From contig CAZHYV010000004.1 of assembly GCA_964537055.1 (NCBI GenBank), positions 112,661-176,660 of the forward strand: a DNA stretch of 64,000 nt, written 5' to 3'. Origin of the DNA: an uncultured Myxococcales bacterium. GTDB taxonomy: Bacteria; Myxococcota_A; Polyangia; Palsa-1104; JAEUJZ01. Below are positions 40,832 through 43,610 of the stretch, piece by piece. Within the stretch, counting starts at the first letter, position 1. Each line of letters begins with the position of its first letter. Under the pieces are notes generated by a model. That model was not told the origin of the DNA and did not search any database. It was given only the letters and a program-made list of their open reading frames with translations. The translations under genes and the position numbers were made by a program.

Positions 40832-40904
40832 GGGGATGTAGCTCAGTTGGTAGAGTGTCTGAATGGCATTCAGAAGGTCAGGGGTTCGATTCCCCTCATC
40901 TCCA
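40832..40904 (+). tRNA. tRNA-Ala (anticodon GGC)
   Basis: 73-nt cloverleaf folded by hand with acceptor GGGGATG/CATCTCC, a G3:U70 pair, anticodon loop ATGGCAT and T-loop TTCGATT. Confidence 0.85.
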
Positions 40905-40926
40905 TAGAAGATGTGGGAAATCAATG

Positions 40927-42220
40927 TCATTTCTCCTGCGTCTCAAAAAAATTACAAATCAGTTCTGTTTGCGTATTTTCGTATAAAAACCCATTGAAAA
41001 AGGCCCGATAATACTCGTTTTGGTATTTTGCCCTTTCGAGTGGATCTTTTCCTATAAGTTTCCAATCTCTGGAAAAAAGCCGAATAAAATCCTGTCCTGT
41101 TTGCGCGTTGATTCCATCAAAGATAGTTTTCTTTCCATCTTTGATCTTATCCACAAGAACGACTCGCTGATGAGTATGGTTAGCATCAATATAAGAAGAG
41201 AGTATCGCTTGGTTGATATAAGTATCAGCAAACCCGTACCCAATGATGAGCAGCCTACTGTTGTTACGCAAACATCTTCTGAAATATTCGTAATATGTGG
41301 CGAACGGTTCCTGTGCAATTACTCGATTCGATTTCTCTAACCCTGTAATTATTGGAAAATTATATTCGGATCTTCCTGCTTGGGATTGTTGTGCATATCG
41401 AGGAAATCTAAGATCCTTTTGGGAAAAAACTGCGATTTTCATTGAATGGCCAAATGTTTATACTACCATGCAAATGTGCAAGCCTTGGTCTTTCATCTGC
41501 TTCCATAAATAATGAAGGACTAAATATAAACCTATCTTCTATAGGGCGAAAACCACAGTCAATGTAGGATATTACTTCCTCGATACAGGGGTCATAATTT
41601 AATGTGACTATATTAAGTTGAAACTTCGATGCGAGTGTCTCCAGGAACGAACGATATCGAGAGTGTGCTTGAGAAATGTCTATGGGTAATTGCTGGACAC
41701 TATTAAGGACTTTCCTAGAATTTTGATAAATAGAATCTAAAACTTGATGAATGATTTTTGAAATAAGTCTACGAATAAACCATTCTATGTTTTGGGACGG
41801 CGATTCAGGCTCTCCGGAGGATAATTCACTCAAGAAGTCCGCTATTTCCTTATGAAATTCTTTTGTCAAAAAGCCTTCTACAGCGACTATGCCATGATAA
41901 CGAAGTCCGCTGTTTTTAGAGGGATAACTTCTATGGAGTGTTGAAAGAGTTTCTAGAGTATGGATCAGATGTTCAAAATTGATGAGTTCAACTTGCTTAT
42001 TTTTTTCACCAGGAGTAACTTTATATTCATTAGGGAAATCGTCTCGATAGCAGTTCGTCGTAAGCTGTTTAAGTATTTCTAAGAACTCTAGCTCCCGACT
42101 ATCAAACAATTTGTAACTATTACAAAAGATTTCCTTGGTTATGGCAACAGTACCAGGGATTTTCAACAATGTAGAGGCGCCAGCTCCAACAAGGATAGTA
42201 AGTCGTTCTTTTTTACTCAT
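40927..42220 (-). pseudogene. SIR2-like (SIR2_2 family) protein split by a frameshift in an A6 run (plus-strand 41424..41429)
   Basis: The N-terminal ORF (41408..42220) has LTILVGAGAS and a catalytic-His motif HLHGS. The C-terminal ORF (40927..41442) has LLIIGYGFAD. Deleting one T from the minus-strand T6 run joins the two frames directly (..NENRSFSQKDLRFPRYAQQ..), giving a roughly 425-aa protein. Confidence 0.6.
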
Positions 42221-43386
42221 TTGCTTAAATAAACTCTTTCTTCTAATCTATTCCGAGTGCGGTTAAGCTCTTCGACGAGTAACTTTTCGTCTGGAAGTTT
42301 TGTTTTGTATTCACTCGCCAGGACTTTGTTAGTAATCCCTTCTAATGCATAATGAACCACGGCATCTTCTTTCTGGGAACACAGAATTAATCCCACAGGT
42401 GGATTTTCTCCTTCTAGCCTCCAGTGCTCTCGTGCATAGTTTACATAAAGATGCATTTGACCCACGTCTGCATGGGTGAGACGTCCAATTTTCAAATCAA
42501 TGATGACCAGGCAGCGTAATCGTCGGTGAAAGAAGAGCAGATCGATTCGATACCATTCTGACCCTACGCGTAATCGTCTTTGGCGGCCAACAAAGGTAAA
42601 ATCGTTTCCCAGTTCAAGCAAAAAAGCTTCCAAATTTGCAATCAATGCTTCTTCTAACTTGCTCTCTGAATACTCGTCTTTTAGACCTAAAAATTCTAGG
42701 ACAAATGGGTTCTTAATCTCTTCTTCCGGGGTCAAAGCATATTCGGGTTTTGCTGGTGTTTCCTTCTTGAGAAGATTTGCTTTATTCTTAGACAGAAGGG
42801 CCCGCTCATAAAATTGACTATCGATTTGACGCTCTAACTGTCTTACGCTCCACCCACCTCGAAGGGCTTCTGCTTCATAGAAAGCACGGGCTTCTTCTGA
42901 GCGTGTCCGACGAATCAATAAAACGTAATGCGACCACGATAAAGGAAATGGGACCTTCCTATTTTTTCCTTCGACCTTTAATTCCCCAGACACTGTCTGG
43001 GGAATTTGTCGTTGTGCATAAATCGAATAGAATCGTCGAGCGTCTTCCAATCGAGTAATCGAAAACCCTCGACCAAATCTTTCAGTGAGATGATGAGAAA
43101 GATAATGCAGTAATTCCTGACCATACTGCGCCCGTTCTTTTCCCTGTTGTTCTTGCTCGATGATCCGTTTTCCTAAAGACCAATACATCGTTGTCATAAT
43201 GAGATTGACTGAGCGCACAGCGTTCCTTTTCGCTTGCTCGATAAGCCCTACTAAGTCATCTAACATCGTCTTGTAGTCGGATTGCGATACAAGTTTTGCC
43301 TTTGGTAAGAGATTGTCTCTATTCGATCGCTTTTTGTTCTTTGGTAGTGGCATCTTAGACAGGTACAGTAGCGTTTTTTCATCCAA
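42217..43386 (-). CDS. YhcG/DUF1016-family PD-(D/E)XK nuclease
   Basis: 389 aa with PLSWSHYVLLI in the N-domain and a C-terminal PD-(D/E)XK core (RIDLLFFH...VIIDLK...GQMHLYVNY). Its stop overlaps the SIR2-like start (ATGA). Confidence 0.7.
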   Translation of the reverse strand: MDEKTLLYLSKMPLPKNKKRSNRDNLLPKAKLVSQSDYKTMLDDLVGLIEQAKRNAVRSVNLIMTTMYWSLGKRIIEQEQQGKERAQYGQELLHYLSHHLTERFGRGFSITRLEDARRFYSIYAQRQIPQTVSGELKVEGKNRKVPFPLSWSHYVLLIRRTRSEEARAFYEAEALRGGWSVRQLERQIDSQFYERALLSKNKANLLKKETPAKPEYALTPEEEIKNPFVLEFLGLKDEYSESKLEEALIANLEAFLLELGNDFTFVGRQRRLRVGSEWYRIDLLFFHRRLRCLVIIDLKIGRLTHADVGQMHLYVNYAREHWRLEGENPPVGLILCSQKEDAVVHYALEGITNKVLASEYKTKLPDEKLLVEELNRTRNRLEERVYLSK

Positions 43387-43555
43387 GAGGAAAGTGCCGA
43401 GACAAGAATTTATTCAAACAAATGTAGGAGAATGCCAAACCTTACTGCTCCATTTTAACATCAAAGGAGCCAAAAATAGTTTCTTTATTCACGTAAGTAG
43501 TTAAAAGTGCAGAACTTTGTGGAACTGGACAACGATACCATAAAGCTTCTCATCA

Positions 43556-43610
43556 GTAGAGTGTCTGAATGGCATTCAGACGGTCAGGGGTTCGATTCCC
43601 CTCAGCTCCA
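43556..43610 (+). repeat. direct repeat of the 3' 55 nt of tRNA-Ala (att-like islet boundary)
   Basis: gtagagtgtctgaatggcattcagaCggtcaggggttcgattcccctcaGctcca differs from tRNA positions 19-73 at two positions. Confidence 0.8.

Follow-up and report, generated by a model that had tools for sequence, protein, structure and literature searches.

The window analyzed here, a 64,000-nt stretch of genomic DNA that is apparently from a metagenome assembly of an uncultured Myxococcota-like bacterium, contains a tRNA-Ala(GGC) gene followed by a low-GC islet. The interior of this islet (40906-43555, 2,650 bp) lies between two copies of a direct repeat that corresponds to the 3′ end of the tRNA gene. We read the structure as a decayed islet, similar to a cis-mobilizable element (CIME), that was formed by site-specific integration into the tRNA-Ala gene, whose integrase was either lost or supplied in trans, and which adjoins an older acquisition bearing a Fic gene; we hold this reading with a probability of about three in four. 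Together, a Fic pseudogene and low GC content beyond the right repeat point to a hotspot holding at least two successive remnants, and the locus is best read as a tRNA-Ala hotspot for successive, eroding foreign defense genes. We regard it as a decayed genomic islet of an ordinary type, which does not represent a novel class of element.

A tRNA-Ala gene and its partial copy

The islet and its borders comprise the following features, where att denotes an attachment site and ORF an open reading frame:

40832-40904, plus strand: tRNA-Ala(GGC), intact, 73 nt, no encoded CCA (ARAGORN; Rfam RF00005, 70.7 bits)
40850-40905, plus strand: attL, left copy of a 56-nt direct repeat, consisting of tRNA positions 19-73 and one further base (repeat search, aligned display)
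40927-42220, minus strand: SIR2-like gene of about 430 codons, split by a 1-nt frameshift (Pfam, PADLOC, alignments)
42217-43353, minus strand: YhcG/DUF1016 PD-(D/E)XK nuclease gene, reading frame free of internal stops (Pfam, PADLOC)
43354-43555, no strand assigned: noncoding right end of the islet, about 200 nt (no family match for small ORFs)
43556-43611, plus strand: attR, right repeat copy, a tRNA-Ala fragment truncated at its 5′ end and bearing C44 and G68 (repeat search; Rfam)

The tRNA-Ala(GGC) gene, in whose sequence the alanine identity pair G3:U70 and an A5-U68 pair can be read, serves as the target for integration, attL being formed by its last 55 nt. An earlier reading made from the letters alone (hereafter the sequence-only reading) had described an intact tRNA-Ala(GGC) at 40832-40904 whose 3′ 55 nt recur downstream in the same orientation with two mismatches, and had taken this as the attL/attR signature of integration into a tRNA gene. 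ARAGORN and Rfam agree on the gene, and the direct repeat proves to be one base longer, with 54 of 56 positions identical between 40850-40905 and 43556-43611; the repeat of the tRNA 3′ end, the foreign composition, and the defense-type cargo all support the proposed signature. The two copies differ at 40875/43581 (A/C, tRNA position 44) and at 40899/43605 (T/G, position 68). In the aligned display, identity begins at tRNA position 19 and ends 1 nt beyond the discriminator base, and the foreign DNA begins at 40906, directly 3′ of the end of the tRNA (40904). Rfam scores attR as a partial tRNA (43548-43602, model positions 10-63, 29.9 bits). The 23-nt core of the repeat occurs at just two sites in the window when three mismatches are allowed, with none expected in shuffled sequences, and local alignment of the whole tRNA to both strands found no further copy of tRNA-Ala in the window.

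Two other candidate structures at the islet ends were rejected. Comparison of the left and right ends revealed no terminal inverted repeats of the kind found in transposons. A 17-nt near-repeat lying on either side of attR, at 43364-43380 (TACAGTAGCGTTTTTTC) and 43638-43654 (TACGGTTGCGTTTTTTC), was considered as a pair of recombinase arm sites and is treated as chance, because by our estimate about five pairs matching at 15 of 17 positions are expected in 7 kb; the shuffle test applied to this pair used a pattern derived from that same pair and is not independent.

Composition and gene content of the foreign tract

Base composition sets the islet apart from its surroundings. As the sequence-only reading had stated, the interior is poorer in GC than the backbone (39.7% versus 46.6 ± 2.3%, placing it in the lowest 1.2% of 2.65-kb windows), and its tetranucleotide distance falls in the top 1.6% of windows. 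The GC or k-mer profile that had been suggested as a check thus reveals a compositional discontinuity, which is sharpest at third codon positions. GC content at these positions (GC3) is 0.31-0.35 in the two halves of the SIR2-like gene and 0.385 in the YhcG gene, against 0.469 ± 0.024 in 19 backbone genes; the islet values are 3.5-6.6 standard deviations below the latter. To the right of attR, bulk GC remains at 0.43-0.44 up to approximately 44.75 kb, and a gene encoding a short-chain dehydrogenase/reductase (SDR) is back at backbone values. The foreign tract, from approximately 40.9 to 44.75 kb, is therefore two units with a partial tRNA between them; the right repeat is a boundary of the islet, as had been proposed, but not the end of the foreign DNA, since the Fic pseudogene and low GC continue beyond it.

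All ORFs within the islet are on the minus strand. Where the sequence-only reading had counted two or three minus-strand genes, the strand was correct and the count is two, including a SIR2-like gene with a frameshift. This gene abuts the tRNA as had been described, its stop codon (40927-40929) being 22 nt from the tRNA end. It is represented by two ORFs, 41408-42220 (270 aa) and 40927-41442 (171 aa), which overlap by 35 nt around the frameshift site, a run of six T residues (A6 on the plus strand, 41423-41428). Both fragments match the SIR2_2 profile and the PADLOC SIR2 profiles, each over one half. Deletion of one T yields a 430-aa protein that scores 41.3 bits against a Pfam gathering score of 24.5, which neither fragment alone reaches, and this repaired protein aligns end to end, through the junction, with single SIR2_2 proteins of 400-430 aa (25-30% identity). 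The SIR2-like gene is either a pseudogene or the product of a homopolymer sequencing error.

The SIR2-like protein belongs to a rare, divergent group: in a set of 5.8 billion proteins, approximately 50 relatives reach E < 1e-5, at 25-30% identity. Only its SIR2 domain is matched, by generic SIR2 and Aga_SIR2 profiles (1e-13 to 7e-21), and its score against NCBIfam SIR2_antiphage is 23.9 bits, against a cut-off of 500. Searches with Pfam and PADLOC found none of the partners of known SIR2 systems (Ago, HerA, or TIR) near the gene, whose neighbors are the YhcG gene and the tRNA. Thoeris, DSR, SIR2-HerA, and SIR2-pAgo/SPARSA were rejected as assignments, as the partner or fused domains that define them (the TIR protein ThsB, HerA, a short pAgo, or the long DSR architecture) are lacking here.

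The YhcG nuclease gene is apparently intact, judging from its reading frame and from homologs that span 92-99% of it. It matches Pfam DUF1016_N (8.7e-42) and YhcG_C (9e-58) and the PADLOC candidate PDC-S02 (1.3e-134); its start is ambiguous, being either the ATG at 43353 or, according to the public gene call, the ATG at 43266. More than 8000 homologs were found, the best of them (60-67% identity) in Acidobacteriota, Armatimonadota, and the archaeon Methanoperedens, and the family is found on plasmids as well. When the islet DNA was compared with plasmids and phages, matches were confined to part of this gene (64-69% identity). For the backbone gene that flanks the locus, an NAD(P)H-hydrate epimerase/dehydratase fusion, the nearest relative shares 49% identity, followed by Myxococcales and Polyangia metagenome-assembled genomes at about 45%. 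On these protein comparisons, the contrast between 60-67% and 49% looks like the pattern of a gene that moves horizontally and resides in a poorly sampled host.

The stop codon of the YhcG gene overlaps the start of the SIR2-like gene by 4 nt (42217-42220), indicating that the two form one operon; the noncoding DNA at 43354-43555 presumably holds its promoter together with the remains of the element-side arm of attR. A conserved two-gene YhcG-SIR2 system was considered and rejected, as no SIR2-like neighbor was present at any of 80 metagenome loci with YhcG homologs (51-67% identity, 559 kb in total), and the neighbors at two loci that encode distant SIR2 homologs are Shedu (SduA_C) or GmrSD, with no YhcG. 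The absence of the pair at those loci suggests that the pairing is a one-off and not a recurrent module. The notion that relatives of YhcG typically sit in tRNA-flanked islets was likewise rejected, since a tRNA of any kind was present at only one of the 80 loci.

We found no integrase or excisionase family among the islet ORFs (Pfam and PADLOC matched SIR2_2 and YhcG only), and Pfam scans detected no integrase, resolvase, or transposase among the ORFs of at least 150 aa in the window, which encode housekeeping and miscellaneous proteins such as GyrB, SerRS, S1, YidC, MnmE, RsmG, GlmU, and topoisomerase IB. Recombinase remnants in intergenic DNA were also rejected, as small ORFs in the noncoding DNA next to attR and on the far side of the Fic gene show no similarity to recombinases. 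The sequence-only reading had reported no integrase or excisionase and had proposed a remnant of an integrative element that retained only cargo; the family searches sustain the first statement, and the lack of a detected recombinase family together with the matches of the cargo to defense profiles supports the second.

Right of attR the window continues as follows:

43662-44357, minus strand: SoFic-type Fic pseudogene (Pfam Fic_N and Fic; PADLOC SoFic; PDB SoFic; tblastn)
44358-44746, no strand assigned: low-GC spacer separating the Fic pseudogene from the SDR gene (GC profile)
44765-45523: SDR gene, the first backbone gene right of the spacer

The Fic ORF (43722-44339; GC3 of the pseudogene, 0.408) retains an intact HPFLDGNGRIGR motif (HPFxDGNGRxGR) and covers positions 21-223 of the 361 in the PADLOC SoFic profile and residues 40-228 of the 373 in SoFic of known structure (PDB 3EQX). 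In a tblastn search with a full-length Fic protein from a Picosynechococcus plasmid, residues 25-264 of 382 align to 44357-43662, running through an in-frame stop at 43722-43724; the last 118 or so codons, encoding the C-terminal domain, are gone, and homology stops approximately 50 nt short of attR. The C-terminal domain of SoFic is reported to be crucial for toxicity (PMC12249575), and with this domain lost and a stop in frame the predicted product is almost certainly inactive. The frameshift in the SIR2-like gene and the nonsense codon and truncation of the Fic gene indicate that decay is under way. Local alignment past the Fic pseudogene detected no remnant of a third, degenerate att copy (scores of at most 10, against a null mean of 11), and this possibility was rejected.

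Two further observations concern the spacer. The sequence at 44419-44505 is an imperfect palindrome whose arms measure 34 nt and whose outermost 11 nt are perfect (CCCTATTTCAG...CTGAAATAGGG); it folds at −30.2 kcal/mol (z = −3.2 relative to shuffled sequences) and could be an operator, a terminator, or the remnant of a small mobile element. Upstream of the Fic pseudogene, a 48-aa ORF (44598-44744, minus strand) has a sub-threshold match to Pfam Fic-like_C (E = 0.04, 14.3 bits), and tblastn with the full-length Fic protein gave no match at 44598-44744; the Pfam match may be due to chance or may mark a scrap of a second Fic-type gene.

Proposed history and rival explanations

In the history that we propose, a small circular element whose attP mimicked the 3′ 55 nt of tRNA-Ala(GGC) would have been inserted into the tRNA gene by a tyrosine-type site-specific recombinase, an event that would rebuild an intact tRNA at attL and leave a 5′-truncated copy at attR. 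A Fic-bearing unit would have arrived at the tRNA first, and the SIR2/YhcG unit would then have entered the regenerated tRNA and pushed the Fic unit outward, making the Fic pseudogene the older, neighboring remnant. The islet may once have possessed integration genes; either its recombinase gene was later lost or the recombinase acted from another element, and both units would have shed their mobility genes before decaying, which would leave the islet immobile at present. The C44 and G68 of attR may be two neutral changes that followed integration, or may represent the element's own att, derived from a host whose tRNA-Ala has a C5:G68 pair.

Several observations weigh against this history. Neither an empty site, nor a donor element, nor a second att copy was found in the collections searched. 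Among genome contigs, the flanking NnrE/NnrD protein has a single weak match (25% identity), which did not provide an empty site; relatives of the flanking gene at 45-49% identity have other gene neighbors and no tRNA there; and the 55-mer att sequence, written with ambiguity codes at the two variable positions, has no match in viral or metagenome contig collections. We therefore infer integration from the scar alone. The YhcG half of the islet, with a bulk GC of 0.43-0.44, is only mildly atypical. The islet ends are tight (21 nt on one side and about 200 nt on the other) and hold no recombinase fragment, implying that an integrase gene was cleanly deleted or that the element lacked one from the outset. 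Finally, G68 in attR would form a mismatch with A5 of the tRNA, and so either G68 arose by mutation after integration or the crossover took place within the last 6 nt of the tRNA (CTCCAT).

The only other public sequences of the locus are Logan contigs (k = 31, SRR11567520), apparently from the same sample, and they bear on whether the contig could have been misjoined through the tRNA-like repeat. Contig L002 (37798-41403) confirms the attL junction, holding backbone, tRNA, and islet in one piece; L091 (42027-43611) carries islet interior and the whole of attR; and L092 (43582-47496) joins the attR-specific G at 43605 to the right flank. Positions 41404-42026 are not covered by the Logan contigs fetched, and the overlap between L091 and L092, inside attR, is exactly 30 nt long (k−1). 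An assembly artifact would account for a break of this kind in what is apparently a metagenome assembly, as well as for the uncovered interval, but all three contigs, which carry the junctions, are 100% identical to the window, and attL and attR differ at two positions, so that the repeats share no 31-mer and do not collapse at k = 31; we regard a misjoin as very improbable. Given the k−1 overlap and the lack of a 31-mer common to attL and attR, the assembly graph of SRR11567520 must branch inside attR (43581-43612). This branch could stem from a strain variant at the junction or from another organism's tRNA-Ala with the same 30-mer. The sequence-only reading had called the remnant fixed; given the branch, the junction may instead vary within the population.

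A junction variant in the population is what might be seen if the islet were a still-mobile, nonautonomous cassette, a functional CIME or satellite that never had an integrase and was moved in trans by a recombinase from another part of the genome or from a visiting element. The near-intact att copies (54 of 56 positions), the tight ends, and the lack of any trace of a recombinase pseudogene are all in keeping with such a cassette, and related elements can mobilize CIMEs in cis (PMC5704250). However, one of its two cargo genes is frameshifted and the neighboring remnant is a pseudogene, which argues for decay and not for active turnover; searches of the viral and metagenome collections gave no other occurrence of the att sequence, neither a parent element nor a cognate integrase was found, and the graph branch is equally explained by another organism's tRNA-Ala with the same 30-mer. 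We consider continued mobility unlikely. A more elaborate version, to which we attach only a small probability, would make the islet one allele of a polymorphic tRNA-Ala "cassette site" at which integrase-less, single-operon defense cassettes are exchanged by a recombinase acting in trans, with C44 and G68 of attR representing the donor att and the crossover falling in the last 6 nt. Such swapping would be somewhat like that of integron cassettes, with an att derived from a tRNA; the branch in attR might hint at polymorphism in the sampled population. Another scenario, no less doubtful, dispenses with site-specific integration: 43556-43611 would be what is left of a second tRNA-Ala gene in tandem, its first 18 nt and the spacer before it having given way to foreign DNA through illegitimate recombination. 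Tandem copies stay identical over the tRNA body only, and identity ending at the tRNA 3′ end would then be expected too, as would the lack of an integrase. This scenario requires more events, however, and it leaves unexplained why a 3′ segment of att size (55 nt), in direct orientation, marks the right border of low-GC DNA; moreover, G68 would already break the acceptor stem of the second gene. The decayed, CIME-like islet next to an older Fic remnant remains our preferred reading.

Comparison with known systems and genomic context

Structurally, the islet is a CIME. This class was defined for the islands related to ICESt1 and ICESt3 of Streptococcus thermophilus; a review of it describes tandem accretion of CIMEs and integrative mobilizable elements (PMC5704250). 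Shared features are the retention of both attL and attR, the lack of integration and transfer genes (here, integration genes are absent from the islet ORFs and from the small ORFs near attR), and the tandem position next to a decayed element at the same target; the islet differs in its tRNA target, its uncultured Myxococcota-like host, and its far smaller size (2.65 kb, one operon). Its position at the 3′ end of a tRNA, its att repeats, and its foreign composition are those of a tRNA-targeting genomic island, in this case one that encodes no integrase.

The islands of Prochlorococcus exhibit arrays of partial tRNAs produced by tandem accretion (bioRxiv 10.1101/2020.12.28.424599). Such tycheposon-type arrays resemble our locus in integration at tRNA 3′ ends, in direct repeats of partial tRNAs, in elements separated by nothing but a partial tRNA, and in the presence of integrase-less remnants. 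The islet differs in having a single partial tRNA left and neither a tyrosine recombinase nor a replication module; because these are lacking, membership among the tycheposons cannot be claimed. In the E. coli pan-genome, tRNA loci are common defense hotspots, and the occupied ones often have no detectable mobile element (PMC10121019). The locus described here is similar in placing defense-type genes (SIR2-like, PD-(D/E)XK candidate, SoFic) beside a tRNA, and differs in that two of the three are pseudogenes. With SoFic, the Fic AMPylase of abortive infection (PDB 3EQX; PMC12249575), the Fic pseudogene shares the Fic_N and Fic domains and the intact HPFxDGNGRxGR motif; it differs in its in-frame stop and lost C-terminal domain.

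One neighboring gene deserves mention as a candidate integrase:

37857-38924, minus strand: bacterial type IB topoisomerase (Top1B_N_bact and Topoisom_I), 2 kb upstream of the tRNA (Pfam)

Topoisomerase IB and tyrosine recombinases have a common catalytic fold. The gene matches the backbone in composition and is located outside the islet; we reject it as an integrase, a role for which we see next to no chance, and it is probably unrelated to the islet.

Elsewhere in the window, a second low-GC patch (53700-58200, 0.37-0.42 in 1-kb windows) encodes DUF6058, DUF6968, a DUF676-type esterase, and a Cu/Zn superoxide dismutase, has no tRNA or recombinase nearby, and may be a further segment of foreign origin. 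Between GlmU and topoisomerase IB, at 36338-37736 on the minus strand, a homolog of the Imm70 immunity protein (Pfam, 1.1e-19) lies beside an unannotated 217-aa ORF and may represent an immunity gene orphaned from a polymorphic-toxin system. The greatest tetranucleotide distance in the window (L1 0.31-0.33) is at 10750-12000, which covers the start of a gene for a CarboxypepD_reg-repeat protein (9432-11177, minus strand) and an adjoining gap with no ORF of at least 150 aa. The presence of gyrB (751-2745) and of a yidC-mnmE-rsmG cluster (28787-32771) suggests that the window comes from the part of the chromosome around the replication origin.

The rare SIR2-like group might interest those who catalog SIR2 defense genes, the copy here being broken. 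The finding has little importance outside annotation. For annotation, three genes that pipelines would treat as separate become one split SIR2-like gene and a Fic pseudogene. The locus also adds a further example of defense islets that shed their mobility genes and decay in place, and it marks tRNA-Ala(GGC) as a hotspot for horizontal transfer and defense genes in a poorly sampled Myxococcota-like lineage.

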